64,000 nucleotides of DNA from positions 65,357-129,356 of the forward strand of contig DATGJZ010000142.1 in the NCBI GenBank assembly GCA_035294925.1, read 5' to 3'. Below, piece after piece: positions 14,668 to 61,501 of the stretch. A program made the position numbers and the translations under genes. Each line of letters begins with the position of its first letter. Position 1 is the first letter of the stretch. The notes beneath the pieces were generated by a model. The model made no database searches. It was not told where the DNA came from and saw only the letters and a list, made by a program, of their open reading frames with translations. Source of the stretch: Candidatus Angelobacter sp. Lineage in GTDB: Bacteria > Acidobacteriota > Terriglobia > Terriglobales > Acidobacteriaceae.

Positions 14668-16095
<1,428 letters not shown>

Positions 16096-16228
16096 GAACT
16101 TTCTTCTTTGCATCGAACGGAGTGAGAGATCCCTACTTTCATGAAAGCGAGTGCCGGGGTATCCCTCCCTCCGGTCGGGATAAACTACAAAAGCACCACT
16201 ATGCCAGGTTAGTTGGCCGTTGTGATGG

Positions 16229-16366
16229 TTACGAGTCGCCGAAGAGAGGGCTGGTAAAGTGGGTCACTACAGCATCGCCTTTTCCCAGAATCTTCTGCAG
16301 TTCCTCGGCGCTGAGATGGCGCGCATTTGCGCGGCTGAGTACGCGATTCCCGTTATTGTTTGGCAT
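16229..16366 (-). CDS. Candidate 45-aa small ORF (not in ORF track)
   Basis: The minus strand reads ATG...TAA encoding MPNNNGNRVLSRANARHLSAEELQKILGKGDAVVTHFTSPLFGDS. A strong RBS (gaaaggagaaacgt) precedes the ATG. It is convergent with eno. Confidence 0.3.
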   Translation of the reverse strand: MPNNNGNRVLSRANARHLSAEELQKILGKGDAVVTHFTSPLFGDS

Positions 16367-16442
16367 ACGTTTCTCCTTTCGAGAGTTGTTCCCCGCCAGG
16401 GATAGCGGGTTTTTATTCTAACAGCTCGCGGACCGCGCATAT

Positions 16443-17640
<1,198 letters not shown>

Positions 17641-18042
17641 GGCTCCGCTAGCCTCTCAGCGGTGCGTTGAGCCTCATGGAGAGATTGCTCCAGAAGATCA
17701 AACTGCGGATTGACAGGGCTTATCTCTATGCGGCAAGAAAAAAAGGCTCACTGGTCAGGTAAGCCATATTTCTCGTGTTACGTTGAAGTTGCGTTTCATA
17801 GAGCCGGAACGATTCCGTGCTGGAGAAGTACAGCGCTCTATTCGGGTGAGTTTCCCACAAAGCAAAGCCGGAAGGCCGCGTATTGCTCGTATCCCAGCCT
17901 TCCTTCCTGACGCAAGAATTCGCGCCCTCCCTTACGAAGCAGTAAGCGATTGCAAAGTTTTGGAGGTGGGTTCGTCGGCCCGCCTTGTTAAGAAGGCGCG
18001 AAAAAATCCCGCAAGAGAACCGCTGGGAATTTCGTATTAAAC

Positions 18043-19344
18043 TTGATTGGCGCTTTAGCTGCTCAAAAGAGGTCGAGTGTGGCAGGACGTCCACCAAAAT
18101 CTTCGCCAATTTCGGTTAGGACTGCGTTATCCAGGTTGCGCAAATCCAGGGAGCAAATTGCCGAGTTAACCCGGGAGCGACTATGGTCTGGACAAGCTGC
18201 CGAATGGCAGCGAAACCTAAGGAGCACTCTCATGCGCCTCGATCCTCAGGATTCAAGTCGTGTTGATGAATTTGACCGAATCTCCTTTGAGCCGCCCTTG
18301 GCAATCCTGAGCTTAGCTATAACATTGCAGATTGATGAACGGACCAAAGCTTTTCTAGCAGGGCTTGAGCAGGCAAAAGTGTTTCTGGATACTTGTATCC
18401 GCGAGCTAGAGAGACAGGGCAATGACACCGGCCCTAATGATATTCGTACACAATGGAAAATAGCACCGAACATGTTCCTGCCGCACAGCGCACCGTCGAG
18501 CCGCACTGCGTTAGAGGACACCGGATCTCAAACTATGACTGCCGAGCAAATCCTCAGTGAAATGAATTGGTACGAAACTGAATTCGCAGGTATCCTTTCC
18601 CGTTTCAACAGAAACCGGGACGGCGTTTGGATAGGAGAAGGCGACGATCCGATCTTTCGTCAATACGTGCGCGAAATCATTGACCTATTCAATGACGTGT
18701 TTGGGAACAACGTGTACTCCCAACAGATTGCTGAGGAGTTCAACCATGGAATCTCTAATTACACGAGTTCACCGTCATATAAATGCGTGGAAAATATCTT
18801 GTCCATTGTGCGTGCCGTGCTCACCCGCCTCAACCGTAACCCGAGATTATTGGAAGGGCAAGAAGCGCAAGAGAATGATGCCGGCCAACAGCGAGTCGAC
18901 GCTGTGCTTGGCATTTGTGATCGCTTCCACGAGGTCGCGCGGCAACTCCTTCATCGCCGTGAGAACCGATCCACTCTTGAAATCAAAGATGAGTATGACG
19001 TTCAGGATCTCCTTCATGCATTACTGCGCATTCACTTTGAGGACGTCCGCACGGAGGAATGGACGCCGTCTTACGGTGGAGGTTCGTCGCGGATGGATTT
19101 CCTTTTGAAGGAGTATGCGATTGTCGTAGAAGCGAAGATGGCACACAGGACGCTGAATACAAAGGAGGTGTCAGAACAACTCATAATCGACGCTGCCAAG
19201 TATCGACAACATCCGAACTGCAAGACCCTGATCTGTTTTGTATATGACCCCTCGGGGTTGTTGAAGAATCCTCGGGGAGTCGAGCGGGATCTAGCTAAAT
19301 TGTCCGGGGATGGACTAGATGTAATATGCCTTGTCATGCCATAA
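18043..19344 (+). CDS. Hypothetical protein with C-terminal PD-(D/E)xK (restriction-endonuclease-fold) nuclease signature
   Basis: The C-terminal about 120 aa carry an E...D...ExK arrangement: EYDVQDLLHALLRIHFEDV ... SSRMDFLL ... AIVVEAK. The N-terminal about 300 aa are helical and unassigned. G+C is low relative to the core genes. The listed start is TTG and is uncertain. Confidence 0.65.
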   Translation: MIGALAAQKRSSVAGRPPKSSPISVRTALSRLRKSREQIAELTRERLWSGQAAEWQRNLRSTLMRLDPQDSSRVDEFDRISFEPPLAILSLAITLQIDERTKAFLAGLEQAKVFLDTCIRELERQGNDTGPNDIRTQWKIAPNMFLPHSAPSSRTALEDTGSQTMTAEQILSEMNWYETEFAGILSRFNRNRDGVWIGEGDDPIFRQYVREIIDLFNDVFGNNVYSQQIAEEFNHGISNYTSSPSYKCVENILSIVRAVLTRLNRNPRLLEGQEAQENDAGQQRVDAVLGICDRFHEVARQLLHRRENRSTLEIKDEYDVQDLLHALLRIHFEDVRTEEWTPSYGGGSSRMDFLLKEYAIVVEAKMAHRTLNTKEVSEQLIIDAAKYRQHPNCKTLICFVYDPSGLLKNPRGVERDLAKLSGDGLDVICLVMP

Positions 19345-19461
19345 AATACCTTCATGAACGAGGGAGTGTTGTTGATCGTTGAGGCCAATGTGGGCCTTTT
19401 TGGCACCTGTGAAGAGTGCTTCCGTGCGGGCTAATTTAGAGGTAAGTGCTTGATTCTAAAT

Positions 19462-19490
19462 TGGCTGCCTCACCAGGATTCGAACCCCGA
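19462..19490 (-). other. tRNA 3'-end-like fragment (T-arm + acceptor + CCA), minus strand
   Basis: The reverse complement reads tcggggTTCGAATcctggtgaggcagCCA. No matching 5' acceptor, D arm or anticodon arm lies upstream, and the T stem has one mismatch. Confidence 0.35.
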
Positions 19491-19600
19491 TATGCTCATC
19501 CAGGATCAACGTGCCGTAAACGTTGCACTCCTCCGGTGTCGAGTGTCAGTTTCCGCGCGAACTTCGCGATGCATCTGCCGCGAGTTAGGAATCCCCTGGT

Positions 19601-19650
19601 TCGGGGTTCGGGACCAGGGGGCGGGGGTTCAAATTCCCTCTCCCCGACCA
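19601..19650 (+). other. tRNA 3'-end-like fragment (T-arm + acceptor + CCA), plus strand
   Basis: ...gggggTTCAAATtccctctccccgACCA. No complementary 5' acceptor strand (cggggag) lies within 400 nt. The element begins with tcggggttcg, the exact inverted copy of 19481-19490. Confidence 0.35.
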
Positions 19651-19721
19651 ATCTTTTCAATAACTTAGAGTTGATTTCCGGTCTGTATGCCCAAGCTGAC
19701 GTTAAATCCTTTCACTTGCGA

Positions 19722-20006
19722 TTAGCCGTATCTTATTTTCAATAGGAGTATTGAGGTCATAAGACATAGCGCGACGCCATTAGCAACCCATATGGGAGGT
19801 TGACGTACTGCGATACCATAGAAAAACCAGAGTAGCGTCCCTGTTACGATAGCGACGTACATTGGGAGCGAAAGATCACGTGTCTGTTTCGTTCGCCATA
19901 CTTTTATCACTTGGGGCAGAAAAGAAAATGTGACCAGGGCGCCGGCGACATATCCCATCGCCTGTATATAGATCATTTTGTCAGCCAGTTTCAGCCAAGA
20001 TGCCAT
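19722..20006 (-). CDS. SemiSWEET / PQ-loop family small transporter
   Basis: About 94 aa with three predicted TM helices and the PQ motif in FSFLPQVIKVWRTKQTRDLS. The ATG at 20006 (MASWLK) is preferred. Confidence 0.8.
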   Translation of the reverse strand: MASWLKLADKMIYIQAMGYVAGALVTFSFLPQVIKVWRTKQTRDLSLPMYVAIVTGTLLWFFYGIAVRQPPIWVANGVALCLMTSILLLKIRYG

Positions 20007-20093
20007 AGCTTCTCCGCTCTCAATAGGATTCAAGAATTACCTCTTGGAACCGTCCGTTAGGCTCATGCTCGCCCTCTTAAGGAGGAATCTCAG

Positions 20094-21128
20094 TTAGCGA
20101 CCTGACCTCGCCATGCGTTTCTTTTCAAGTGTTTGTGCCAGAGCTGCTGCAATTCTTCCTGGCCCAAAATCATGCACTATCTCCAGAAGCTTCTTCCTTT
20201 TTCTTTGGAGCCTATCTCTCAGATCACTGGGATCAGAATGCATCTCTCCCAGGTGCTCAGCGTACACCGGTCCTTTGATCAGGGACCGGTCTTTCAAGTC
20301 ATTGAAGCTTCCCAACCAACAACTGCGGCCAAGAACCGGCTTGAGTTGTGAAGTGCGCAATTCCAAATAACCATCGAATTCCGACGGCGAATTCTCAATC
20401 GCTTTCACTGAGGCCATCGTATATATGAATTTGATCATGTCACTTCTAAGCCATACCAAATCGGACCGCCAGTTGCCGCGGTGAATCAAGGAGTCTTTGA
20501 TTACCCAAAAAGCCCTTCCTTCGCTGATGATGTATCGGTCCTCGCGATGCTGAATGTCAAAATATCCTATTGTGTCTCGCATCCCATCTGGCGTTTCGGC
20601 CAGCAGGCTGTAAATCCACCAGCCCTCGAAAGCGTTGGTCTCCGATCGCGCTGTCTGAATATGCTTGTCCAACTTAGGCCAGAGCAGATCAAATCTTTCT
20701 CTCAGGAGTGAACTGCTAACCTGCAGACCGATGCGTTGGTTGACCGTAGAAACAAGATCGAATGTGCCTTCCTTCGTTGCAGTCTTTGCCTGAAAGTGCC
20801 TCAACGGACCAACTAAATCAGTGATCTGTAAATCGATTAGATATGGTATGACTGCACTTTTGTCGAGCGACTTAGAGAGAGCACCAGCCTCAAACATGAT
20901 CCAGGGAGATGTTTTGTTTTCACGAGTCAAGCACAGAATTCCGCAGTCTCGCCTTTCCAGTTGATGGCCGAGTTCTGGGATGGATCTACTGCCGGCTGCA
21001 ATATCGGTTTCAGAAAACCAAGGATCTGCGTGCTCCCCGAGCACCAGGGGGAGCCATTCCTTTAGGGCGTTGGCGACGAGCCTGCTGCGCTCTCCGCTCC
21101 AACTAAGGAAGATATTGGGCGCTTTCAT
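20094..21128 (-). CDS. TIR-domain protein with unassigned about 200-aa C-terminal domain
   Basis: The N-terminal about 135 aa (NIFLSWSGERSRLVANALKEWL...DCGILCLTRENKTSPWIMFEAGAL) match the bacterial TIR pattern, with a candidate catalytic Glu80. The C-terminal domain is not recognised. The start overlaps the upstream gene's stop (ATGA). Confidence 0.8.
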   Translation of the reverse strand: MKAPNIFLSWSGERSRLVANALKEWLPLVLGEHADPWFSETDIAAGSRSIPELGHQLERRDCGILCLTRENKTSPWIMFEAGALSKSLDKSAVIPYLIDLQITDLVGPLRHFQAKTATKEGTFDLVSTVNQRIGLQVSSSLLRERFDLLWPKLDKHIQTARSETNAFEGWWIYSLLAETPDGMRDTIGYFDIQHREDRYIISEGRAFWVIKDSLIHRGNWRSDLVWLRSDMIKFIYTMASVKAIENSPSEFDGYLELRTSQLKPVLGRSCWLGSFNDLKDRSLIKGPVYAEHLGEMHSDPSDLRDRLQRKRKKLLEIVHDFGPGRIAAALAQTLEKKRMARSGR

Positions 21129-23518
21129 TGCCGAGATCCGCCCTCGCCTTCATCGCTGATCAGCATCACGTTGGTTGTGACTTCGCCACGAGACACCGCG
21201 AGCCTGCCATCTTGGGACCATGCGAAGAACTGAATCTGGCCAGAGGTGAAATGAGTCAATGGTTCTGCGCGTTGCGTCGAGAGCGAATAGGACCAGATAT
21301 TTCCTATGCCATTGATGTGTTCAACGTAGCTTAAAGTTCGGTCATCCTTCCATTGTAGACGACTTCCCCAAGGAGAAAGATCGAAGTTATGGAGAACAAA
21401 TACGATCTCAGTCTCACGGTTCGGATCTCGCACCATCTCCCTGAACGCAAGTGGAATAATCTTTACGGCTCTCTTGCCAGCCACATAGGCGCGGACGGCG
21501 AGCAGTTGCCCGTTAGGCGAAATGGCCGGATCATATACATCCCGTTCGGGCGTCATTTGTTCAGGCGGTTCTTTCTTGTCGAGGGCAATGCGCCATATCG
21601 TCGTCTCCTTGCCAGGGCCTGATGCGTAAACGACCCAGTTTCCAAAGACTCGCGGATTGTAGTCAGAACCGCCGGAAGTAAGCCAGCTTAGTTCACGCGT
21701 CTGGATATCCATCTTCCAAATATTCGAGCCGTGCAAACCAGCCTGTTCATTCAAAAAACTACTGTTTGAGACAAATACCACAATTTTGCCATTGGCCGAA
21801 ACAGCCGGGGAAAAATAATTATCTTCACCACGGCCTAGCTCTCCCACAAGGCTGGCCGCGTTGTGTCCATCGGAGTCGACTATCCTTATTTTACTAGTGC
21901 GGCCATCTAGCGCCGTATAGACCAAACGGTTATCTGGAGTCCAAGTCAATCCGGCCATCCCGGCTGACTCCCCTTTGCGGAACTCGACAGGCATCGGGTC
22001 ATAAAAGACCTCTTTAGCGCTTTTCAGTGGCGCGAGTACCTGCAATTCGCATTTGACATCTTTTGCCAAGACAACGAAGTGCTTTGAGTGGTTACTTAGA
22101 TTCAGGACGTCATACTTTTGCGATTTATTGTCTATCAATTGCCTTGACCGACCGCTAGGATAGGCTACAAGAGAAAGCTGATTTGGAAATGCCGGATCTA
22201 GTGTCTCTGTAATGATACCGCTTCCATCTGAAAGCCAGACCAAGCTACTTTGAGTGTTCCACTCATCACCGGTCTTCAGGGGTTGCTCTTTGCCGTTAGC
22301 AGTGTCAACAACAACCAAATCTGATTTAGGAGAACCTGCCTGACCAGCGAGAAGTGCGATCAGCCTTCCGTTAGGCGACCAAGCTGCAGTCTGTGCATAG
22401 TAGCGACTTGGCGATTTGCGCTCCGCAAAAATTTGCACGGTCCGACCATTGTCAGATAAGGCATCCAGTTGCCGTATCACTATGGAAAATGTCGGGTCGC
22501 CACCACCCTCCCGGCGACGCACGAACGCATAACGCGTACCATCCGGAGAAAGCGTTATGTGGTCCGCCACTTGTCGTTGTACGAGTGTGCTCTCCCCTCC
22601 CAAGGCACCTATCTTGTAGAGCGCTGCCGGGCCACCCTCATTCGAGCCTTGGCCGTAGTAGATGTATTCTCCATCGGGAGAGAAGAGGATCTGCCGATAC
22701 GTAACGGCTGCGGAGCGCACAAGAATCTGGCCAGGTTCCGTCCAGTGCGCACTGACTTGTTTGATGTGAAGTTCTTGATGGCTAACCAGCGAACTGCGAT
22801 CGGAATCTGCCGTCTCAGCCTCGGCATACCTAGCATAAGCCAAGTATTTACCGTTAGGCGAGATCGCCGCCATTGTTACTTTGCTCCCACTGGTCAAAGG
22901 ATAGGCGTTGAGTGGATTCTGGCGAAAGGCTTTCTCGTAGTCGCTCAGCGGATATATCAGCCATGCAAGAAATGCAATTATGACCGTAGCTAATCCGAGC
23001 CCCCACGTAGATTTCAGAACTCGTCTTTTTAACGGCACACGCTTGGAAAGATCCTTGTCTACGGCGGGTGGTTCAGGGCGTGGTCGGTGCAAAGCAAGCA
23101 ACAGATCTCGGTAATTGCACTCGTAATTCTTACCATCACGGAGATCAATATAGGACTTCCCGAGTTGAGTCGAAGGGGCAGCTGTCTCCCAGGTGCCCCG
23201 TCTGAGTACAGGAACGAACTTTCGATGATTACCCTTTACGAAAACTTCACCTTGGATGATATCGCCCTCATAGGCGGCACCCCCGTCGTCGCCATCCGCT
23301 TTGAGTTTGTATTTGGGCGTACAAATAATTAAGACAAAATCATTCTCAGAGACTGCTTTAGCCATAGAGGCTGGCAATTGATCTCCTGGCGCGACGTGCC
23401 ACTGGTCGAGAGTTACCTCCACGCCGTCCTTGCACAGGCGGGTGGCCAATTGGCGAACCCAACTCATATGTGGGTCATCGTCCCAAGAATACGAGATGAA
23501 GGCTTTCGGGCTATCCAC
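21125..23518 (-). CDS. TIR - transmembrane helix - PD40/TolB-like beta-propeller protein
   Basis: N-terminal AFISYSWDDDPHMSWVRQLATRLCKDGVEVTLDQW...FVLIICTPKY is TIR-like. One TM helix (WGLGLATVIIAFLAWLIYPL) follows a KRVPLKRRVLK positive patch. At least 8 PD40-type motifs follow (ISPNGKYLAY, FSPDGEYIYY, LSPDGTRYAF, WSPNGRLIAL, WTPDNRLVY, VSANGKIVVF, ISPNGQLLAV, WSQDGRLAV). Confidence 0.85.
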   Translation of the reverse strand: MDSPKAFISYSWDDDPHMSWVRQLATRLCKDGVEVTLDQWHVAPGDQLPASMAKAVSENDFVLIICTPKYKLKADGDDGGAAYEGDIIQGEVFVKGNHRKFVPVLRRGTWETAAPSTQLGKSYIDLRDGKNYECNYRDLLLALHRPRPEPPAVDKDLSKRVPLKRRVLKSTWGLGLATVIIAFLAWLIYPLSDYEKAFRQNPLNAYPLTSGSKVTMAAISPNGKYLAYARYAEAETADSDRSSLVSHQELHIKQVSAHWTEPGQILVRSAAVTYRQILFSPDGEYIYYGQGSNEGGPAALYKIGALGGESTLVQRQVADHITLSPDGTRYAFVRRREGGGDPTFSIVIRQLDALSDNGRTVQIFAERKSPSRYYAQTAAWSPNGRLIALLAGQAGSPKSDLVVVDTANGKEQPLKTGDEWNTQSSLVWLSDGSGIITETLDPAFPNQLSLVAYPSGRSRQLIDNKSQKYDVLNLSNHSKHFVVLAKDVKCELQVLAPLKSAKEVFYDPMPVEFRKGESAGMAGLTWTPDNRLVYTALDGRTSKIRIVDSDGHNAASLVGELGRGEDNYFSPAVSANGKIVVFVSNSSFLNEQAGLHGSNIWKMDIQTRELSWLTSGGSDYNPRVFGNWVVYASGPGKETTIWRIALDKKEPPEQMTPERDVYDPAISPNGQLLAVRAYVAGKRAVKIIPLAFREMVRDPNRETEIVFVLHNFDLSPWGSRLQWKDDRTLSYVEHINGIGNIWSYSLSTQRAEPLTHFTSGQIQFFAWSQDGRLAVSRGEVTTNVMLISDEGEGGSRQ

Positions 23519-23597
23519 GTGCTGTTCCTTATCAGATTTCCAATTTGTGCGTTGAGAAAAAGTATCACGGTTTGGCTTAGAAACTAAAGCCTAATTT

Positions 23598-24262
23598 GAA
23601 GCAGTGATTCAGCGGGTGGCATCTTCGGGATTCTGGCCGGTTCCTTCGCTGCGCTCAGGATCTCGCCCTTCGACAAGCTTATTAATAGGGCAGGCTCTGC
23701 GGGTTCCTGCTCCGCTCACACCCGCAAGACGGCTCGACTTCCGCCCACAGAGCGGCGTCAGAATGACAGGCGTTGAGTTTCTGGTTCATGCAGCCACCTG
23801 TGCAAAAGAAAGAAGGCCGCAGGGCCTGACGGTTCTGTGCGAATTCCCTGAAGCAACGATTCAGCGGGTAGCATCTTCGGGATTCTGGGCAGTTCCTTCG
23901 CTGCGCTCAGGATCTCGCCTGCGGGTTCCCGCTCCGCTCACACCCGCAAGACGGCTCGACTTCCGCCCAAAGAGCGGGCGTCAGAATGACAAGGCGTTGA
24001 GTGTTTGGTTCATACAACCACCTCCGCAAGAGGTTGGTTGCGCCTGACACACTTCACGGGTTCCCCAAAACACTTTTTTCCACGCGAGACTCGCCCTGCA
24101 AGCGAGTGCCAGAGTGTAGGGATCCCAGGAGAATTTGGTAATTGGGAAAGTTGGTAAGAAGATCCTTCGGCTTCGCTCAGGATTTCGCCTACGGGCTCGG
24201 ACGCCCGCAAAACGGCTCAAGTCGGTAATTGAAAGTCAAAGACGAAATTCTCTCGACGCCTA
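23598..24262. repeat. Cluster of intergenic repeats (two full family-A units, one shortened A unit, one family-B unit)
   Basis: The unit ...gattcagcgggtRgcatcttcgggattctgg...ttccttcgctgcgctcaggatctcgcc...gctccgctcacacccgcaagacggctcgacttccgccca.agagcgg.cgtcagaatgaca.ggcgttgagt...ggttcat occurs at about 23600-23800 and 23850-24030. A degenerate copy lies at 24160-24222, and a ggtaattg-type family-B unit at 24127-24262. Confidence 0.85.
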
Positions 24263-24561
24263 CGGGTTGCGTTCGTTGAATTATTGCGGGGACATTGCGA
24301 GTCGCTCCGCAAAGCCCGCATCGAGGGGCGTAACATCAAGAAAACAGACAACGACGGAATGATGGCGGGCAGTACAAGAGTGCAGTTGTTGCGACCCGAA
24401 TCAAGAACCTGGCTATTCAGGAACTGCTCTAAGGCTGACGTTGCCCATAAGTTCGCCACAAAGCGAAGGGCGAGAGAATCGCCGGCTGCGGCACCTAACG
24501 TCTGCAGGTCAAGATCTCTTAGAGTGATTTTGTTGATGACAAGCTTATTGGGTTTCTTCAC
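24217..24561 (-). CDS. GG-leader-type peptide paralog with extended or degenerate core (possibly a pseudogene)
   Basis: GTG start with a gaggagg RBS. The first 26 aa, MKKPNKLVINKITLRDLDLQTLGAAAGD, are near-identical to the 26007-26165 peptide leader, but the GG is lost. The ORF then reads 85 more codons through repeat DNA and the antisense of an eno-tail remnant. Confidence 0.35.
   Translation of the reverse strand: MKKPNKLVINKITLRDLDLQTLGAAAGDSLALRFVANLWATSALEQFLNSQVLDSGRNNCTLVLPAIIPSLSVFLMLRPSMRALRSDSQCPRNNSTNATRRRRENFVFDFQLPT
24266..24314 (+). pseudogene. eno: Diverged remnant of the last about 16 codons of eno (fragment F2)
   Basis: 49 nt align without gaps to eno 16044-16092, with 38/49 identical by hand count. 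It translates as LRSLNYCGDIASRSAK versus the eno C-terminus [16 protein letters not shown]. Confidence 0.6.
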
Positions 24562-24585
24562 ATGGCCTCCTCAAGACAGATAAAA

Positions 24586-24790
24586 CTTAACAGGCTTGGA
24601 GAACCTTTTTCGTTAATGCTGAACACAAGGTCCCTCCAATTTACCCGCGCTGGCGCGCGAGTAAACTCTCGGGATGACGCCAGGATTTTTCACGGTCTTC
24701 ATTCAGTGAACAGTATTGCGGTTAATTGCTATTTGCTAAATACCCGTGTTCCACCCCGGCAGGTCGGCCCGCGCTACCATATCTCGATCT
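24586..24790. repeat. Family-C repeat plus duplicated 3' end of the HAF-like gene
   Basis: acaggcttggagaacc...aaggtccctccaatttacccgcgctggcgcgcgagtaaactctcgggatgacgccagg...gtgaacagtattgcgg...tatttgctaaatacccgtgttccaccccggcagg is a near copy of 26783-26965. The family-C core also recurs at about 32670-32730. Confidence 0.85.
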
Positions 24791-24828
24791 AACGCGTCTA
24801 TCTAACTTATGAAAAAAGCACGAGGCTT

Positions 24829-25580
24829 ATGAGAAAAGCACCAGGACTCGTAGCGATTGCACTGACGCTATTTGCGGTTGCCGTGGCGCCGGCGAAGGCC
24901 CAATCTCCAGTTGAGTTTGACCATGTTTGGATCATGGTTTCATCCAACGCTCCGGAGCGCGCGGCCCTGCAACGTGCAGGCTTGCTGATATCGCCGGACA
25001 TTAACCGCCACGACGGACAAGGAACCGCATCGATTACGGTGGAGTTCGAAAATGCTTTCCTGGAGTTGATGTGGCCTGACTCTACGGTTGCTGTAAAGCC
25101 TGGTTTAGAGCGGGCCGTTGAAAAGTTCCGGCATCGTATGCTCTGGCGCTCCAGCGGCTGGTGCCTCATCGGCATTGGGTTTCGCCGAATGACCCTGTCG
25201 GATGATGCCTTCCCGTTTCCAACCTGGTCTGTGAGTGCGCCCTGGTTGCCGGAAGGCTCGGCGATTGAAATGCTGACCCCTCGCGACGACACGGCAAGCC
25301 CATCATTGTTCATCAGCCCACGCGCTATGGCGGATCAAGGTGATCAAGCAGCACGAGCATCGCGCTTCCATCATCCCATCGGTGTTCATCGGGTAACTGC
25401 CGTTCGTCTCATATTCCCAAAGACGTATCGGCCTATCGAGCCGATTTCCTATCTAGACAGGTGCATGTTCTCGAAGTCCAACAAGGCGACGAATGGGCAG
25501 TGGAGTTGACATTCGACGGTGGCCTGAAGGGAAAATCGAGAGACCTCAGGCCAGATCTTCCTCTCGTTATTCGATATTGA
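24829..25580 (+). pseudogene. Secreted glyoxalase-like (VOC-fold) domain protein with an apparent frameshift near the 3' end
   Basis: Signal peptide, then EFDHVWIMVS...HDGQGTASITVEFENAFLELMWPD, which is typical of the glyoxalase-like domain family. The listed ORF stops at 25509. A different frame continues as ...VSAYRADFLSRQVHVLEVQQGDEWAVELTFDGGLKGKSRDLRPDLPLVIRY* to 25580, which looks like the authentic C-terminus. Confidence 0.6.
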
Positions 25581-25640
25581 TTCACAAGCGATCAAATCAT
25601 CAGGCTCTGCATTCCCGACAAGGCCCTTGCGTAGCATTCC

Positions 25641-25990
25641 CCAGGAGAATTTGGTAATTGGGAAAGTTGGTAAGTTGGTAATTGAAAGTCAAAGACGAAA
25701 TCCTCTCGACGCCTACGGGGTATCAAGGGCCGAGGCCCTTGGTTAGTCAGGAGAATCTGATCCAGTGCAGCATGAAGTTCCGCAAAAACTTTTTCGTGAG
25801 AACTCCCTGAAGCAGCGATTTAGCGGGTAGCATCCTCGGGATTCTGGGCGGTTCCTTCGCTGCGCTCAGGATCTCGCCTGTGGGTTCCCGCTCCGCTCAC
25901 ACCCGCAAGACGGCTCGACTTCCGCCCAAAGAACGGGCGTCAGAATGACAAGGCGTTGAGTGTTTGGTTCATGCAACCACCCCCGCAAGA
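25641..25990. repeat. Composite repeat block (family B + connector + family A)
   Basis: ccaggagaatttggtaattgggaaagttggtaag..ggtaattgaaagtcaaagacgaaatcctctcgacgcctacgggg...gtcaggagaatctgatccagtgcagcatgaagttccgcaaaaac.ttttcgtgagaactccctgaagcagcgatttagcgggtagcatcctcggg... is repeated almost exactly at 26329-26640. Confidence 0.85.
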
Positions 25991-26006
25991 GACGGCTACG
26001 CCCCCC

Positions 26007-26165
26007 TTATGGGCACTTGCAACGGGTAGGGCAGGTAAGAGCCGTGGCGCAAAGCTGATGTGTGGGACAAGGTGACGAGAAGCCGCCGGCTACGGCACCT
26101 AACGTCTGCTGGTCAAGATCTCTTAAAGTGATTTTCTTGATGACAAGCTTATTGGGTTTCTTCAC
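26007..26165 (-). CDS. 52-aa GG-leader, Cys/Thr/Ser-rich RiPP-like precursor peptide (not in ORF track)
   Basis: Hand translation gives GTG-start MKKPNKLVIKKITLRDLDQQTLGAVAGG|FSSPCPTHQLCATALTCPTRCKCP*. The RBS gaggagg lies about 5 nt upstream. The leader resembles the KL-x-L-x-K-x-T-L-R-x-L...VAGG double-glycine precursor type. The 24-aa core has 5 Cys, 4 Thr and 2 Ser. Confidence 0.6.
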   Translation of the reverse strand: MKKPNKLVIKKITLRDLDQQTLGAVAGGFSSPCPTHQLCATALTCPTRCKCP

Positions 26166-26328
26166 ATGGGCCTCCTCAAGACAGATAAAACATCCTGATG
26201 GTGAGTTTATTGAATTTGTCCAATTTGGGTTCCTTGTCCTTCACGGTCTGCTTTCTGAAAGATTGCGGAACTTGTTACGGCCCAAAATGGTACTGCCAGA
26301 AAGCAAGGAGTGTCAAATGCAGTTCATT

Positions 26329-26640
26329 TCCGTAATTGAAAGTCAAAGACGAAATCCTCTCGACGCCTACGGGATATCAAGAGCCGAGGCCCTGGTTAGT
26401 CAGGAGAATCTGATCCAGTGCAGCATGAAGTTCCGCAAAAACGTTTTCGTGAGAACTCCCTGAAGCAGCGATTTAGCGGGTAGCATCCTCGGGATTCTGG
26501 GCGGTTCCTTCGCTGCGCTCAGGATCTCGCCTTTCGACAAAGCTCAGGGCAGGCTCTGCGGGTTCCCGCTCCGCTCACACCCGCAGGACGGCTCGACTTC
26601 CGCCCAAAGAGCGGGCGACCGGGAATGAAGTAATGCGGCG
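26329..26640. repeat. Second copy of the composite B/A repeat block, nested inside a larger duplication
   Basis: Near-identical to 25676-25990. Its family-A part carries the same type of internal insert (tttcgacaaagctcagggcaggctc) as the A unit at 23665-23697. Confidence 0.85.
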
Positions 26641-26782
26641 TGAAGGGGCCACTCTTGTCCAGACCTGGCCGCCGCTCGCAGTTCACCAAAGTGAAACAAA
26701 AAGGAGCAGGCAACTGCCTGCCCGCCAATCACCTGCTCCCGCTGTTTACCAAGGGCCAACGGCTCATTGCAATACGGTTCAC

Positions 26783-26925
26783 TTGACAGGCTTGGAGAAC
26801 CTATTTCGTTAATGCTGAACGCAAGGTCCCTCCAATTTACCCGCGCTGACGTGCGAGCAAACTCTCGGGATGACGCCAGGGTTTTTCACAGTCTTCATTG
26901 AGTGAACAGTAATTGCGGCTCATTG
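26783..26925. repeat. Family-C repeat immediately downstream of the HAF-like gene
   Basis: Copy of 24586-24745 (acaggcttggagaacctatttcgttaatgctgaacgcaaggtccctccaatttacccgcgctgacgtgcgagcaaactctcgggatgacgccagg...). Confidence 0.85.
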
Positions 26926-27783
26926 CTATTTGCTACTTGCTATATACCCGTGTTCCACCCCGGCAGCAGTGAAGAAGTCGCCGACAATTGTGCCTTCGGC
27001 GTTAAGTCCGTCTCCATCCGTCGACGCAGCCCCGGGAAAATCCAGTTGAACAAATGTTCCATTCTGGTTTAGGAAGCCGTGCCCGTTCCCAGAGGCATCG
27101 GTGAAGCTGCCAATGATGCTTGTCCTGGCATTCAGGCCAAAGGCGAAGGCGGAGGTGGATCCCGGCGGATTTATCTGAGTGAAGGTATTACCAGTCTTGA
27201 GGAAGGCACGCTCCGCGCCCGACGGATCCACAAATGCGCCTACAATTTCGCCGCGATTGTTGATGCCGAACGCATTCGTATTTGTTCCGCCGGGAAAATC
27301 TATCTGCGTGAATGTGCCGGCAACATCAGTAAAGCCATGGGTGCGCCCGGCAGTATCGGTGAAGCTGCCCGCAATTTCCCGCGAGTCATTGATGCTAAGC
27401 GCCTGGGTAGAAACAGCCCCGGGGAAATCTATTTGGATAAAGGTGGCGCCTTCGCGAAGTAATCCGTGCTGGACCCCGGACGCATCTGTAAATGCGCCGA
27501 CAATGTCATCGCGGTTGTTCAGCCCTACGGTCTTGGTGGCCGTAGCGCTGGGAAAATCCAGCTGCGTGAAAGTGCTTCCGCTATGGAAGAAGCCATGCTG
27601 CCGCCCGGCCTGATCGAAGAAGAAACCGACAATATCTCCACGTGCATTGATGTTATCGGCCTCGGTCGAGGCGCTGTTGGGAACGTCAAAGAGCTGAAAG
27701 TTGAAAGAGGAGGTTTGCGCATGGATACCGGACGGCAGGATGCCGAGAGCCAGCAGCATAGCCGGCAGGAATTTTTTCAACAT
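26926..27783 (-). CDS. Secreted repeat protein, HAF-family-like extracellular repeats
   Basis: Signal peptide MLKKFLPAMLLALGILPSGIHAQ, then about 6 repeats of about 43 aa (F.QIDFPGA..T.A.GIN.RGEIVG.F.D..G..HGF). The ORF-track N-terminal extension (27784-27939) merely translates ggtaattgg repeats. Confidence 0.75.
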   Translation of the reverse strand: MLKKFLPAMLLALGILPSGIHAQTSSFNFQLFDVPNSASTEADNINARGDIVGFFFDQAGRQHGFFHSGSTFTQLDFPSATATKTVGLNNRDDIVGAFTDASGVQHGLLREGATFIQIDFPGAVSTQALSINDSREIAGSFTDTAGRTHGFTDVAGTFTQIDFPGGTNTNAFGINNRGEIVGAFVDPSGAERAFLKTGNTFTQINPPGSTSAFAFGLNARTSIIGSFTDASGNGHGFLNQNGTFVQLDFPGAASTDGDGLNAEGTIVGDFFTAAGVEHGYIASSK

Positions 27784-27859
27784 GATTTTGTCCTTTCGGG
27801 GAAAACACGTAATTGGTAATTGGTAATTGGTAATTAGTATTGAGTAATTAGCAAAGGAG

Positions 27860-28145
27860 AGAATTTGGTAATTGGGTAACTTGGTAAGTTGGTAATTGAA
27901 AGTCAAAGGCAAAATCTCGCGATGCAAACGGGATATCAAGGGCGGCTCGACTTCCGCCCAAAAAAGCGGGCGTCAGAATGACAAAGGGTTGAGTTCTGGT
28001 TCATGCGACCATCTCTGCAAAAGAAAGAAGGCGCAGGGCCTGACGGTTATGTGAGAATTCCCTGGAGCGGCATGGTCAGCTTCAACAGCTTCGGGGTCTT
28101 TCGACTACGCCCGCCACGGCGGGCTCGCTCAAGATGACAGGGTAA
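27860..28145. repeat. Family-B unit plus partial family-A units
   Basis: gagaatttggtaattgggtaacttggtaagttggtaattgaaagtcaaaggcaaaatctcgcg..., then ggctcgacttccgcccaaaaaagcgggcgtcagaatgacaaagggttgagttctggttcatg...aaaagaaagaaggcgcagggcctgacggtt, which matches 23738-23840. Confidence 0.8.
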
Positions 28146-28234: not shown

Positions 28235-31200
28235 TTAAGGCTGATCGTCGTCTTTCTCTTCCTCCTCGCCGGCTCCTGAACTGGCTCCGCCTTCTGCTTT
28301 GATCTGGATGGGGTTGCCGGCGAACAGGGTGCTTGATCCATGCTCGGCGGCTACCTTGTTGAATGCGGGGACATCTGTGTTCAACAAGGCGTTCACTTCC
28401 TGGAGATGCTGCTGCAGTTCCTTGCGCAGAGAGGCGGCTTCTTCAAGCTGCAGTGGGCCGGGCGCTTCGCCATAGGGGCCCATAACTCCGCGCATGATTC
28501 CCTGCAACTGATCGTGGAAGCGTTGCAAGTAGTGGACGTCGTCCTGGCCGAATGGCTGTACTTCAGTGTTATAGAGCGGCTTTTGCAGGGCTATAAGCTT
28601 TTTGTCCAGCGACCTGGCCTGCTCCAGCACAGGCTTGTAGGAGACATCCACCTGGCTATCCTGGCCCTCCTGGCCGCCAATGAGTTCCTGGAGGCTGGAG
28701 ATTTGTTTGTGCAGGCTGTTGAGCCGGTTCAGGGCTTCATTCATGGCTGAGACTTCGTCGCGCAGCTCCAAAGCCAGCTTGAGCTGGGCGCGGAGGGCAT
28801 TCACGTCCGGGTTGAAGCGGGGATCGGTCTGAACTTGAACTTCCCGCGTTTCCGTCTTGCCATTGACGGTAACGGCTACTTTGTACGTGCCGGGCAGGGC
28901 GGTGGGTCCGCTGTTCGGGTCAAAGAAGAATCCCTCCTCTTCACGATCCGCGGGTGGGGCGGGCAGGAAGGTGAGTTTCTTAGGCCCGTCATACCGCAGG
29001 TTCCAGGAAACCCGATTGATGCCGAACTTGGACGGGCCGTACATGGTGTGAATGATCTGTCCGGAGCTGTCAGAGATCACGATCTTCACCGGCGTCTGAC
29101 CTTTCTTGCGATCTTCCGGGGTGACTTTGATCTCAGAGGGCAGGTAGTACGTGAGTTCGGCGCCGCTGGCGGGATTGGGCGCAACGTAGCCACCCGAACT
29201 GAAACCATGCTTGTTCCAGTTGTGCCAGTTGACCGCGGGCAAGCCTGAAAACAAGTGGAAATCACTGCGCGCCACCTGCGCACCACTTTCTTCCAGCGGA
29301 GTGATGTCGTCCAGAATGAACAGACCGCGCCCGTGGGTGGCCACTACCAAATCATGGGTCCGCTTGATGATTTTTATGTCATAGATGGGGACGGTGGGAA
29401 AATTGCTCTTGAGCGGCGTCCAGTGGGAGCCGTCGTCGGCGGAATAGAACAGGCCGGTATCCGTGCCGACCACCAGGAATCCTTTGTGATTCGGGTCTTC
29501 ACGGACCACCCGGGCGGGATCTTCTTCCGGCAGACCCTGCATGATTGCGGTCCAGGTCTTGCCATAGTCATGAGTCTTGAATACGAAAGGCTTGTTGTTG
29601 TCCACCTCGTGAAAATCTACTGCGACGTAGGCAGTGGCGGGATCGTTCGGAGAGGCCTCAATCTGCTGAATGCGCCCCCATTGCGGGAGATTCGACATGC
29701 CGGCGGTGACGTTGCTCCAATTTGCACCGCCATCGCGCGTCATCTGCACGACTCCATCGTCCGTCCCGACCCAGATGATCTTGGGATCAAGCGGCGAGAT
29801 GGAGAAGGAGAGGATGCAGTCAAAGGTTTCAGCGCCGCTGATGTCATATTCAATGGAGCCACCGCTGGTTTCCTGCTTGGTTTTATCGTTGCGGGTGAGG
29901 TCAGGACTGATGGGTGTCCAAGTTGCTCCAGCATCAGTCGATTTGAACAGGACGTTGCCGCCAATGTAGACCTCATTGGGATCGGTGTAAGAGACGGCGA
30001 TGGGGGAAGTCCAGTTAAAGCGATACTTCAAGTCTGCCGGCTTCTTGAGCTGCACGCCATGGAGATACGGGCGAATGAAGCTGGAGAGGCCGTTCTGGAT
30101 GTTGACACGCTGAACGGAGCCGTTCTGAGAATCCACGTAGACAAGGTGGGTATCTTTTCCGTGGGCCGGGACTGCGTACTCGCCATCGCCTCCGGTCACC
30201 GTGAACCAGTCGTAGCCGCTGATTCCGCCGCGGCTCAAGCTGTTGGAGGGGCCGCACCAGGCGTTGTTATCCTGAAGGCCGCCGCACAGGTTATAAGGAG
30301 AGCTATCATCCTCGGCGACCGAGTAGAACTGCTCGATGGGCAAATTATCCAGATAGCGCCAGGTGCGAGCTCCATCGGAGGTCACGTAAGCGCCGCCATC
30401 GTTGCCATCAATCATGCGATCCGGATCCAGAGGATCGATCCACAAAGCATGATGGTCGACGTGAACACCACCGCGCGTGGTGTTACGTCCGGTCTTTCCG
30501 CCATCCTCGGAAAGCATGATGTTGTAGTTGATGAAGTAGACCTTATTTTCATTGTTAGGGGCGACGGCGATCTGGCTGAAGTAAAAGGGGCGGGCATTGA
30601 AGCTGTGGTTATCGGAAATCTGCCGCCAGTGGTCGCCCAGATCGATGGTGTCCCAGGCGATGCCTTTTTTGGATTCAACCACGGCGTAGATGTGCCGAGG
30701 GTTGCTGATTGAGGCTGCGAGACCGATTCTTCCAGTCAGCCCCTCCGGCAGGCCTTCCGTCAGTTTCTTCCAGGTAATGCCGCCATCATTGGAGCGAAAG
30801 ATGCCGCCGGTTGTGCCGCCACTTTCCAGGGTCCATGGATAGCGGCGCAAGGGCCACAAGCCGGCAAAGAGCACCATAGGATTGTTGGGATCCATGATGA
30901 GCGAACTGACGCCCGTGGTGTCGTCAATATAGAGGACTTTCTTCCAGTTCTTACCGCCATCGGTGGTGCGGAAGACGCCGCGGTCCACGTTCGGGCCCCA
31001 GACGTGCCCGAGGACGCCAACCAAAACAATGTTGGGATCATGCGGGTCGATCACGATGTTGGAGATCTGTCCCGCATCTTTCAGTCCCATGAAATTCCAG
31101 GTTGCTCCGGCGTCAGGAGAGAAATAGACACCGCGGCCGGTAATAAGATCGTTGCGCGGATTGGACTCGCCGGTGCCGACCCACACCAGGTTGGGATTGG

Positions 31201-31573
31201 AGGGCGCGAGGGCGATGGCGCCAATCGAAGCCGTGCTCTCCTTCTCGAAGATGGCCTTCCAGGAGAGGCCGCCATCCTGGGTGAACCACACTCCTCCTCC
31301 GCCTGCTCCGGCATAGTAGACATTGGGCTTGCCGGGAATGCCGACGACGGCTGAGATGCGTCCGCCACCCACAGCGGGACCCAGGTTGCGGAATTTCATG
31401 TTCTCCAGCGGATCTTTGCCATGGTTGTCCTCAGCCTTTTGCGGAGTGTTATCTTCCGCGTTTTCGGCGGTGCGCGAGGAGCGCCGGTCAGAACGATGCT
31501 CCTGAGCGGTGAGTGAGGCCACAAGGCCCAAGACCAGGACAACTACAAGAAGGCATTTCACGAGTGTTTTCAT
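28235..31573 (-). CDS. Secreted BNR/Asp-box repeat protein (sortilin/VPS10-like beta-propellers)
   Basis: Signal peptide. At least 9 Asp-box motifs S/T-x-D-x-G-x-T/S-W (TQDGGLSWK, SPDAGATWN, TTDGGKNWK, SNDGGITWK, TSDGARTWR, STDAGATWT, TRDGGANWS, THDYGKTWT, SADDGSHWT). 1112 aa. Confidence 0.85.
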   Translation of the reverse strand: MKTLVKCLLVVVLVLGLVASLTAQEHRSDRRSSRTAENAEDNTPQKAEDNHGKDPLENMKFRNLGPAVGGGRISAVVGIPGKPNVYYAGAGGGGVWFTQDGGLSWKAIFEKESTASIGAIALAPSNPNLVWVGTGESNPRNDLITGRGVYFSPDAGATWNFMGLKDAGQISNIVIDPHDPNIVLVGVLGHVWGPNVDRGVFRTTDGGKNWKKVLYIDDTTGVSSLIMDPNNPMVLFAGLWPLRRYPWTLESGGTTGGIFRSNDGGITWKKLTEGLPEGLTGRIGLAASISNPRHIYAVVESKKGIAWDTIDLGDHWRQISDNHSFNARPFYFSQIAVAPNNENKVYFINYNIMLSEDGGKTGRNTTRGGVHVDHHALWIDPLDPDRMIDGNDGGAYVTSDGARTWRYLDNLPIEQFYSVAEDDSSPYNLCGGLQDNNAWCGPSNSLSRGGISGYDWFTVTGGDGEYAVPAHGKDTHLVYVDSQNGSVQRVNIQNGLSSFIRPYLHGVQLKKPADLKYRFNWTSPIAVSYTDPNEVYIGGNVLFKSTDAGATWTPISPDLTRNDKTKQETSGGSIEYDISGAETFDCILSFSISPLDPKIIWVGTDDGVVQMTRDGGANWSNVTAGMSNLPQWGRIQQIEASPNDPATAYVAVDFHEVDNNKPFVFKTHDYGKTWTAIMQGLPEEDPARVVREDPNHKGFLVVGTDTGLFYSADDGSHWTPLKSNFPTVPIYDIKIIKRTHDLVVATHGRGLFILDDITPLEESGAQVARSDFHLFSGLPAVNWHNWNKHGFSSGGYVAPNPASGAELTYYLPSEIKVTPEDRKKGQTPVKIVISDSSGQIIHTMYGPSKFGINRVSWNLRYDGPKKLTFLPAPPADREEEGFFFDPNSGPTALPGTYKVAVTVNGKTETREVQVQTDPRFNPDVNALRAQLKLALELRDEVSAMNEALNRLNSLHKQISSLQELIGGQEGQDSQVDVSYKPVLEQARSLDKKLIALQKPLYNTEVQPFGQDDVHYLQRFHDQLQGIMRGVMGPYGEAPGPLQLEEAASLRKELQQHLQEVNALLNTDVPAFNKVAAEHGSSTLFAGNPIQIKAEGGASSGAGEEEEKDDDQP

Positions 31574-32502: not shown

Positions 32503-32864
32503 TAGCTCTTGGCCCTTGGCCTTTGGCCCTTGGGTCATGCATGGTTGTTCTCTCTTTTTGGTTGGGGCTGACCATTTGGTTTGGGCAATCAAGTACTGAA
32601 CTCCTGAAGACGAAAGCCAACGGCTAAAGGCAAATGCGGTTTACAGCGTTTCGGAACCGATTGGGTTAATGGGTAGCGCAAGGTCCCTCCGATTTACCCG
32701 CGCTCGCGCGCGAGTCAACCCTCGGGATGACGGAGCGTTTTGGGGTTAAGGAGCGTAACGACGAGTCCAATATTCCGGCGGCCCCACTACAAGGGAAGAA
32801 ACAACCATACACGAGCCGATGGCCGTTTGCTCATCGCTATTTGCTGTTTTGCTACACTCCTTTC

Positions 32865-39311: not shown

Positions 39312-39387
39312 GGGGCTATAGCTCAGCTGGGAGAGCGCATCGTTCGCAACGATGAGGTCGTCGGTTCGATCCCGACTAGCTCCACCA
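39312..39387 (+). tRNA. tRNA-Ala (anticodon CGC)
   Basis: 76-nt cloverleaf GGGGCTA-TA-GCTC-AGCTGGGA-GAGC-G-CATCG-TTCGCAA-CGATG-AGGTC-GTCGG-TTCGATC-CCGAC-TAGCTCC-A-CCA, with a G3:U70 identity pair and encoded CCA. Confidence 0.95.
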
Positions 39388-61215: not shown

Positions 61216-61501
61216 GTTGGTAACTGGGTAATTGAAAAGGCAAAAACCTCGTGAAAATCAACTTTGTCCGCAGCGGACGAAGTTAAGGCCCTTTGTTTTC
61301 AATGCGTGAAATTGTTCTGCGCGGAACAGTTTAGGGCCCCTAAAGTTGCGCTTCCTGGCGTTTTATGGTTGCTGGAATGCGAATGCGAGCTTTTCCCAGA
61401 TTGAATAAATTCGGCTAAAATAAAATGTTAAGTCTGCCTAGACCCTTTGGGTAATCATCAGGCGCTGCATTTCACCCGGATTATTTTTAGGAGAGAGAAT
61501 T

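Follow-up and report, generated by a model that had tools for sequence, protein, structure and literature searches.

An overlapping SEFIR and TIR gene pair of an acidobacterium, with a predicted membrane sensor and a predicted Cap15-like receptor barrel

The gene pair and the domains it encodes

We analysed a stretch of 64,000 nucleotides from Candidatus Angelobacter sp. (Acidobacteriota; contig DATGJZ010000142.1 of assembly GCA_035294925.1), hereafter referred to as the window, in which two overlapping minus-strand genes both begin with a domain of the TIR superfamily. Gene A (21125..23518; GTG start codon, TGA stop codon at 21125-21127) codes for a protein of 797 aa made of a SEFIR domain, a transmembrane (TM) helix and a tandem PD40 propeller, and gene B (20094..21128; ATG start codon) codes for a soluble protein of 344 aa made of a TIR domain, a beta-barrel and a helical hairpin. 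Every part is of a known kind, namely SEFIR/TIR NADase, PD40 membrane sensor and Cap15-like receptor. What is new is a SEFIR enzyme placed behind a predicted periplasmic sensor, a TIR effector with a Cap15-like barrel as its predicted gate, and the divergent, mostly orphan clade of this barrel, which has many effector partners.

The start codon of B and the stop codon of A share four nucleotides (ATGA at 21125-21128, minus strand), from which we predict that the two genes are translationally coupled. The start codon of B agrees with the N-termini of its four full-length homologs in an alignment, and at the C-terminus of A the alignment with the homolog P0137 runs nearly to the end of P0137. 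Promoter and terminator scans of positions 19300-24300 were uninformative, as they found no more sites than in shuffled sequence. B has neither an upstream spacer nor a promoter-like site of its own. Because of the ATGA overlap and the lack of a separate promoter-like site for B, the arrangement argues for obligatory co-expression. The same order of A, B and a downstream SemiSWEET gene was also present in the JGI contig Ga0070735_10000137 and in the Logan assembly of SRR5579872 (L033/L034), and an assembly chimera was thereby ruled out.

The N-terminal domain of A (aa 1-148; 23075..23518, minus strand), predicted to be cytoplasmic, matched the PADLOC bSEFIR model (2.1e-55; profile positions 35-185 of 412 only) and, among PDB entries, the Bacillus cereus SEFIR structure 5Y8E (6e-17), with the best TIR entry at 3e-4. 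Hmmscan against Pfam gave the order opposite to that of the PDB search, with TIR_2 (8.9e-19; 68.6 bits) above SEFIR (2.7e-12; 47.7 bits). We classify the domain, from these sequence matches, as probably SEFIR-type and not generic TIR. Two of its residues, Asp38 (codon 23405-23407, minus strand) and Glu84 (codon 23267-23269, minus strand), were 100% conserved in 49 homologs. In the alignment with 5Y8E, LDQWH and GGAAYEGD of A stand opposite LDRWH and GGVGTETM, and Asp38 would, judged by motif, lie in the region corresponding to D40 of bSEFIR, a predicted SEFIR-SEFIR contact residue whose mutation abolished defence in the tested protein (10.1101/2022.05.11.491447).

A linker carrying the positive patch KRVPLKRRVLK and the TM helix follow (together aa 149-192, 22943..23074; helix at aa 170-192, 22943-23011; minus strand). 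This is the single strong hydrophobic helix of A (Kyte-Doolittle maximum of 2.08 at aa 173), and in relatives of A with a winged helix-turn-helix (wHTH) or kinase domain a TM helix sits at the corresponding place. From the positive-inside rule we infer that the N-terminus of A faces the cytoplasm and the C-terminus the outside. The remaining part (aa 193-797; 21128..22942, minus strand), of PD40/TolB type and predicted to be periplasmic, matched PD40 (1.7e-17), DPPIV_N and Gmad1 in Pfam as well as TolB TIGR02800 (2.6e-20). Eight strict PD40-type motifs and about three degenerate ones were found there, together with precomputed matches to Tricorn_N and Tricorn_2nd, which are double-propeller profiles; the region probably has about 11 blades in two propellers. 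From the TM helix to the C-terminus, A aligned collinearly with P0137, a wHTH-TM-PD40 protein (29% identity, E 1e-65), and its propeller region was also related to acidobacterial Ser/Thr-kinase-TM-PD40 proteins. Because helix and propeller are collinear with these proteins, A can be assigned by homology to a large acidobacterial family of membrane sensors, its cytoplasmic output having been swapped for a SEFIR domain.

The SEFIR domain of A shared up to 67% identity with its relatives and the propeller at most 31% with any protein found among 5.8 billion; the sensor part is either changing rapidly or derived from a lineage not yet sampled. Membrane or extracytoplasmic parts were also present in a few other SEFIR proteins, namely P0123 (one TM helix), P0133 (TM helix and FGE-sulfatase domain), P0144 (CHASE2), and the pair P0122 and P0125 (each with two TM helices at the C-terminus). 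Two other identities for A were rejected: a peptidase, the peptidase domain being absent, and a housekeeping TolB, the score of 72.8 bits being far below the equivalog cut-off of 343 bits.

The TIR domain of B (aa 1-162; 20643..21128, minus strand) matched TIR_2 in Pfam (1.3e-7) and, over aa 5-164, the PADLOC 'TIR-TM' model (7.2e-47), the latter match being confined to the TIR half of the model; a literature search on the name of this model yielded nothing relevant. Hydropathy analysis detected no TM segment in B, and a hydrophobic segment was present in one of its 115 TIR-family matches. Glu80 (codon 20889-20891, minus strand), in the motif PWIMFEAG, was 100% conserved in 120 TIR homologs. 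Four proteins were homologous to B over its full length (52-55% identity), and all other listed matches covered the TIR domain only. A sequence search of the PDB with B gave no match, and Foldseek with full-length B gave TIR matches to SPARTA TIR-APAZ, plant TIRs and SpbK; that search was dominated by TIR proteins and by two-domain proteins of low TM-score (SPARTA TIR-APAZ, EF-Tu) and was not used for the barrel. Both A and B are thus predicted to carry genuine TIR-superfamily domains with a conserved Glu at the catalytic position. No pairwise similarity was detectable between the SEFIR domain of A and the TIR domain of B; therefore, homotypic pairing of the two is not suggested by their sequences.

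The C-terminal part of B was modelled as a barrel. With an alignment of 29 diverse sequences, AlphaFold2 predicted eight antiparallel strands (aa 169-294; 20247..20624, minus strand) and, after them, a helical hairpin, with a pLDDT of 93.3 and a pTM of 0.87. Invariant Tyr, Trp, Arg, Asp and Glu residues of the barrel lie in the motifs GWWxY, RGxW, FxDL and YAE. The hairpin (aa 300-342; 20103..20231, minus strand) is packed after the barrel in the models, and its first helix is conserved across the barrel family. The best PDB match by Foldseek was 7N34, the cyclic-dinucleotide receptor Cap15 of Yersinia aleksiciae (probability 1.00, E 3e-3, TM-score 0.61 on the target), and the best BFVD match was a viral S-2TM-beta protein (E 1.1e-6, TM-score 0.58). 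Since these two independent libraries agree and the main architecture of the family, two TM helices plus barrel, is also that of Cap15, we assign the modelled region to a divergent clade of Cap15/S-2TM-beta-like receptor barrels, with a nucleotide or another small molecule as putative ligand.

A search of 1.84 billion representative proteins with a profile of the C-terminal 180 residues returned 91 proteins, and a further protein search with a barrel profile returned one. About 55 of 90 barrel representatives are proteins of approximately 240 aa in which two N-terminal TM helices precede the barrel. Other N-terminal partners were Trypsin_2, an alpha/beta-hydrolase (Abhydrolase_6/DUF676), PNP_UDP_1 matching the CBASS 'PN-superfamily' effector model, the FMO-type effector domain of Lamassu LmuA (4.3e-99), SpbK-like TIR (TIR_2) and CAP12/Pycsar-type TIR. 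Across the 91 representatives the barrel is placed C-terminal to swappable killing domains, a pattern that we read, from these domain architectures, as the signature of a regulatory ligand-sensing module. Because the barrel sits where CBASS, Panoptes and PanDA effectors have their nucleotide receptors, and because it is joined to interchangeable killing domains across its family, B would by analogy be a ligand-gated executor rather than an adaptor. In the literature, the barrel has been described as obligately fused to two TM helices (PMC12657218), rare barrel-PNP fusions have been noted in PanDA (10.64898/2026.08.10.743972), and no mention of a TIR-barrel fusion was found. Two genes of the family with two TM helices (L013, 158-893; L015, 1551-2301) were each split by a frameshift, one in a Thermoanaerobaculia metagenome-assembled genome and the other beside a transposase-like gene; they are either decaying copies or assembly errors.

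An earlier note on this DNA, made from the sequence alone, had anticipated much of this anatomy. Its coordinates for the two minus-strand reading frames and their ATGA overlap were exact, and the single TM helix after a positive patch, the eight or more PD40/TolB motifs and the invariant Glu80 that it had picked out were all recovered by our hydropathy, motif, profile and homolog analyses. The Toll-like receptor topology that it proposed for A agrees with the domain order and with the single TM helix bearing its positive patch on the SEFIR side, all as predicted features. It had called both N-termini TIR, which is correct at the level of superfamily profiles and too general for A, whose domain is probably of SEFIR type. 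The C-terminal 200 or so residues of B, which it described as beta-rich and left unassigned, are beta-rich in the models and now fall to the Cap15/S-2TM-beta-like barrel. Its proviso that the PD40 protein might be an ordinary housekeeping member with another N-terminus did not apply, given the TolB score and the SEFIR domain reported above.

Base composition and neighbouring DNA

The pair lies in an island (18043-23518) with a G+C content of 50.6%, compared with 55.8% for the whole window, and the G+C content at third codon positions was 0.46-0.54 in the island versus 0.60-0.71 in housekeeping genes (eno, clpX, trigger factor and others). This composition supports, as far as base content can tell, an origin as acquired DNA. 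The earlier note had likewise reported a lower G+C content for the pair, and overstated the contrast. It had also placed the pair between displaced eno fragments, which was incorrect: the eno gene at 14776-16095 is intact, and only one fragment turned up in the window by tblastn and blastn, on one side of the pair. This fragment (17145-17278; 134 nt, inside the open reading frame 16882-17469) is 94% identical to 15876-16009 (eno codons 368-411) and lies 1.05 kb downstream of the intact gene and 2.8 kb from the pair. Apart from it, no convincing genes were found in 16100-18042.

Convergent to the pair, a plus-strand gene (18043..19344; G+C content of 50%) codes for a protein of 433 aa with a helical N-terminal region and a C-terminal nuclease, matching Pfam PF18742 (REase_DpnII-MboI; 7.9e-53) and PADLOC Aga_Helical-REase (4.1e-34). 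These are Argonaute-associated models, yet no Argonaute gene is nearby, and the gene may be a separate stand-alone defence gene. On the strand of B and within approximately 90 nt of its stop codon lies the SemiSWEET (PQ-loop) gene (19722..20033, minus strand; NCBIfam SemiSWEET_2 9.3e-29; Pfam PQ-loop). Its G+C content of 46% is the lowest in the island. All three assemblies have it downstream of B, and it could belong to the operon as a third cistron. SemiSWEET was not seen beside the B homologs elsewhere, whose contigs are short.

The approximately 4.5 kb upstream of A are mostly non-coding and rich in dispersed repeats of 45-200 nt (23597-28068, also 32654-32741 and 61197-61244), which occur in several copies each at 81-98% identity and matched no Rfam family. 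These repeats may break assemblies, because the JGI contig with the same operon ends approximately 2.9 kb upstream of A. Two minus-strand genes border the repeat-rich region and appear unrelated to the pair, one coding for a HAF-repeat protein (26926-27939) and the other for a Sortilin/BNR-repeat protein of 1112 aa (28235-31573). No tRNA or other RNA feature was found near the pair, the only tRNA of the window being at 39312, and no phage or mobile-element genes flank it. As the earlier note had stated, no SIR2, Macro-SLOG, STING or cyclase is encoded among the neighbouring genes scanned, and we found no CD-NTase, mCpol, minimal DAC or other nucleotide synthase gene in the window around the pair.

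A possible relay across the membrane and its alternatives

We tentatively favour, with somewhat less than even confidence, the reading in which A and B, acquired horizontally and transcribed together, are predicted NAD+-consuming immune proteins that work as a Thoeris-like relay across the inner membrane. A would be the receptor, with its tandem PD40 propeller in the periplasm, one helix crossing the membrane and the SEFIR domain in the cytoplasm. An event at the envelope, with a phage that adsorbs or injects, a fragment of the cell wall or some foreign protein as candidate triggers, would cluster A and switch on the SEFIR active site (Glu84). Beyond depleting NAD+, the active SEFIR domain would cleave or rearrange it to yield a nucleotide signal. 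B would be the executor: its Cap15-like barrel would bind the nucleotide, the proposed SEFIR product, and binding would alter the oligomeric state of B so that its TIR domain (Glu80) depletes NAD+. The loss of NAD+ would then stop growth and abort the infection.

We favour this relay because the SEFIR domain of A is the only nearby enzyme that might make a nucleotide-type ligand, because B lacks the upstream spacer of its homologs and is predicted to be translationally coupled to A, and because TIR-family enzymes are the signal generators of Thoeris. Precedents exist for both halves of the scheme. Effector oligomerisation is under the control of cyclic dinucleotides that the barrels of Cap15, OptE and PanE bind (PMC12657218; 10.64898/2026.08.10.743972), the ligand activating Cap15 but inhibiting OptE (PMC12657218). 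In Thoeris, TIR domains generate the signal for a proposed set of about 30 effector types (10.64898/2025.12.03.692087), and the survey of 29 types names neither a SEFIR generator nor a barrel-TIR effector in its text. Proteins of the bSEFIR group defend their hosts, consuming NAD+ through the SEFIR domain (10.1101/2022.05.11.491447; 10.1101/2024.02.11.579819).

A broader version extends the relay to the entire barrel clade. The propeller would sense attack from outside, the SEFIR domain would make an NAD+-derived messenger, and the Cap15-like clade would read that messenger, gating the TIR NADase in this pair and, in other genomes, effectors of the 2TM, protease, PNP, hydrolase or FMO kind. 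We regard this outside-in pathway as a whole as rather unlikely.

The main rival is only slightly less likely. It is distinctly possible, although we would not call it probable, that A and B are instead two autonomous single-gene abortive-infection systems packed in a defence island, their overlap serving co-expression only. A would then be a bSEFIR-type NADase with its own periplasmic sensor, and B a barrel-gated TIR NADase that senses a molecule of cellular or phage origin with no relation to A. The genomic context of relatives speaks for this alternative and against the relay. Neighbours of B homologs and barrel relatives were read at 12 places corresponding to 10 distinct loci (L001, L002, L003, the P0005 contig, L005, L007/L008, L009, L010, L013, L018, L022 and L023/L024, with L007/L008 and L023/L024 each being one locus). 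For P0005 a gene map only was used, and the upstream genes in L002 and P0005 are cut by the contig end and have no Pfam assignment. At these places no readable neighbour was a SEFIR or TIR partner or a cyclase, no CD-NTase, mCpol or minimal DAC was present as an operon partner, and no partner gene was conserved. Because no partner gene was found at the places read, the usual ligand of the barrel is probably not made by an operon partner. Most of these contexts come from short metagenomic contigs, four B homologs being on contigs of 1.7-2.8 kb, and the P0221 contig (877 nt) had no readable context.

The neighbours that were readable included a caspase-like gene, DUF6308, Trypco1 and housekeeping genes, and the B homologs keep upstream spacers of their own (53-390 nt). 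The B homolog P0004 (L001, 68-2683) is divergent from a caspase-like gene at a distance of 390 nt (Peptidase_C14; PADLOC 'caspase' 6.6e-14); this combination of TIR and caspase recalls type IV Thoeris, with the genes here being on opposite strands. The other homologs lie 53 nt after a truncated gene ending in an FSPDG motif, 310 nt after a DUF3221-like gene, and about 140 nt after an unidentified gene fragment, respectively. Elsewhere in the family, a DUF6308 gene stands 22 nt ahead of a TIR-barrel gene (L007/L008; 7368-8966 in L007), and a Trypco1 gene and a trypsin-barrel gene overlap in Paraburkholderia aromaticivorans CP051516 (L009, 7708-9194), where the region also contains Xre-RES and radical-SAM genes; the Trypco1 and DUF6308 genes may be regulators or triggers of barrel effectors. 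Neither a conserved neighbour nor a synthase was observed at the loci with two TM helices plus barrel (L005/L006, L010, L013, L015, L018, L022 and L023/L024). Scans of DNA with a degenerate motif gave two true loci in genomes and five in metagenomes, all of this same architecture and without a conserved neighbour; the remaining matches were false positives (open reading frames of about 70 aa, E of about 1e-4). A search of metagenomes for related loci with another alignment gave 115 pattern matches and zero true relatives.

The relatives of A tell the same story, as three membrane-associated SEFIR proteins (SEFIR-TM, SEFIR-CHASE2 and SEFIR-DUF7019) are encoded by single genes with no second TIR gene nearby. 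The cited papers describe bSEFIR as a single-protein system (10.1101/2022.05.11.491447) and as an NAD+-depleting effector, not a signal maker (10.1101/2022.05.11.491447; 10.1101/2024.02.11.579819). An unrelated defence-type nuclease is also present in the island. Further points count against the relay. The additional assemblies with the pair apparently derive from the same organism, and the pair did not recur outside them. No second protein with the SEFIR-TM-PD40 architecture was present among the matches from a search of 5.8 billion proteins. The relation of the barrel to Cap15 holds at the level of fold only, with moderate TM-scores (0.58-0.61): no Pfam family, S_2TMBeta included, was common to the 29 barrel sequences even at E values up to 10, the full-length two-TM members P0221 and P0222 had no Pfam or PADLOC match, and the barrel profile returned only noise from the PDB, without finding 7N34. 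The functional coupling of A to B is thus deduced from a single locus, and for A and B as a conserved module the available evidence is negative. If the division of labour suggested by the earlier note, with one TIR as sensor and the other as signaller or executor, is taken as that of a conserved module, it is not supported by these contexts or by the lack of similarity between the SEFIR and TIR domains.

Set against the autonomy of the two genes are the exact ATGA overlap and the lack of a spacer or promoter-like site for B, which would be unusual for independent systems. Moreover, the barrel ligands of CBASS, Panoptes and PanDA come from a dedicated enzyme, for which the SEFIR domain of A is the sole nearby candidate.

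A role outside anti-phage defence seems improbable. A would then signal a condition of the envelope or of the nutrient supply, using NAD+ turnover or a second messenger, in the service of physiology or of interactions between bacteria or among kin, with B and SemiSWEET as downstream physiological components. The collinearity of the propeller with dozens of wHTH-TM-PD40 and Ser/Thr-kinase-TM-PD40 signalling proteins, the co-oriented SemiSWEET transporter gene downstream in each of the three assemblies and the lack of flanking phage or mobile-element genes fit such a role. However, SEFIR/TIR domains with a catalytic Glu and the fusion partners of the barrel are hallmark cell-suicide immune modules, the base composition is foreign, a defence-type nuclease lies next door, and Xre-RES, Trypco1, a caspase-like gene and a transposase are found in the vicinity of barrel-family genes.

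In a further alternative, a protein relay resembling Toll and IL-17 receptors, the SEFIR domains of ligand-bound A would cluster, draw in B by direct SEFIR-TIR contact and seed an active TIR assembly with no diffusible messenger, much as Act1 is recruited by IL-17R. TIR enzymes in general are activated when they oligomerise. This, the receptor topology of A, the predicted translational coupling and the invariant Asp38, aligned by motif with the SEFIR-SEFIR contact region where D40A abolished defence (10.1101/2022.05.11.491447), would suit this mechanism, but we consider it very unlikely, the two domains being of different subfamilies with no detectable pairwise similarity, the pairing not being conserved, and the barrel, a portable regulatory domain across its family, being left without a role.

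The value of the pair depends on which of these readings is true. Known bacterial TIR and SEFIR defences, to our knowledge, sense infection inside the cytoplasm, and a Toll/IL-17-like protein of the TIR family would offer a direct test of envelope-triggered, NAD+-based immunity acting before or during DNA entry. If the outside-in pathway were true, it would be the first bacterial TIR-family pathway triggered from outside the cytoplasm and would supply a ligand class for a new family of orphan barrel effectors. That family, with about 90 representative clusters, is unannotated, has at least seven kinds of killing domain and is usually found without a synthase partner, which raises the question of whether the orphan barrels read a housekeeping nucleotide, a signal that some other system supplies in trans, or a product of phages. 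The barrel of B is soluble, which makes it a convenient member of the family for ligand screening. If the genes are independent, they provide two new domain combinations of known immune modules, with annotation value and little surprise.

Comparison with known systems

The pair matches no described system, in agreement with what the earlier note had stated, and it shares parts with several. One of the systems closest to A is bSEFIR (PADLOC PDLC03957; 5Y8E; 10.1101/2022.05.11.491447), for which the published selection rule is an N-terminal SEFIR match stronger than the TIR match (10.1101/2022.05.11.491447). The N-terminal SEFIR domain of A is, by its matches to the PADLOC model and to 5Y8E, of the same family and has the invariant Asp38 and, for the GG..E motif, the invariant Glu84, and bSEFIR also has its enzyme at the N-terminus and its sensor at the C-terminus and acts on NAD+. 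In place of the C-terminal domain of bSEFIR, A has a TM helix and a propeller of approximately 600 aa, which would move sensing outside the cytoplasm, and whereas bSEFIR is soluble and encoded by a single gene, A is coupled to a second TIR gene. The TM helix and whole propeller of A are collinear with wHTH(Trans_reg_C)-TM-PD40 and Ser/Thr-kinase-TM-PD40 proteins (29-31% identity, E 1e-65); the output of A is a SEFIR domain instead of a DNA-binding or kinase domain, and no other member with SEFIR was found. With the TIR fold and Glu80 of B and the invariant Glu84 of A, both proteins resemble the catalytic TIR NADases and are predicted to be catalytic as well.

The C-terminal domain of B has, in the models, the same minimal eight-stranded barrel fold as the receptors Cap15, OptE and PanE of CBASS, Panoptes and PanDA. 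As with Cap15, most members of the barrel family consist of two TM helices and a barrel, and barrel-PNP fusions are found both in PanDA and here. However, the clade matched neither S_2TMBeta nor the PADLOC CBASS effector profiles, had no adjacent CD-NTase, mCpol or DAC synthase at any locus read, and adds a C-terminal helical hairpin. B itself differs further in carrying a TIR domain in place of the two N-terminal TM helices.

In its layout, the pair may resemble Thoeris (types I-XI), with a gene for a TIR-superfamily enzyme beside one for an effector with a small-molecule receptor domain, and by analogy NAD+ would be the likely substrate and abortive infection the outcome. In contrast to the soluble ThsB, the candidate generator A is a membrane-anchored SEFIR protein with a predicted periplasmic sensor. 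B in turn has a TIR for its killing domain and, for its receptor, a Cap15-like barrel instead of SLOG, Macro or another of the domains listed for Thoeris, and the A-B pairing has been seen in one organism only. The remaining comparison is with the animal Toll-like receptors (TLR) and IL-17R, with which A shares the order of parts and the predicted topology, a soluble TIR protein being encoded adjacent to it. The ectodomain of A is a PD40 propeller and not of leucine-rich repeat or fibronectin type, and A and B keep the catalytic Glu, so that they are probably enzymes rather than scaffolds. Domain shuffling, rather than descent, is the simplest explanation of this resemblance.

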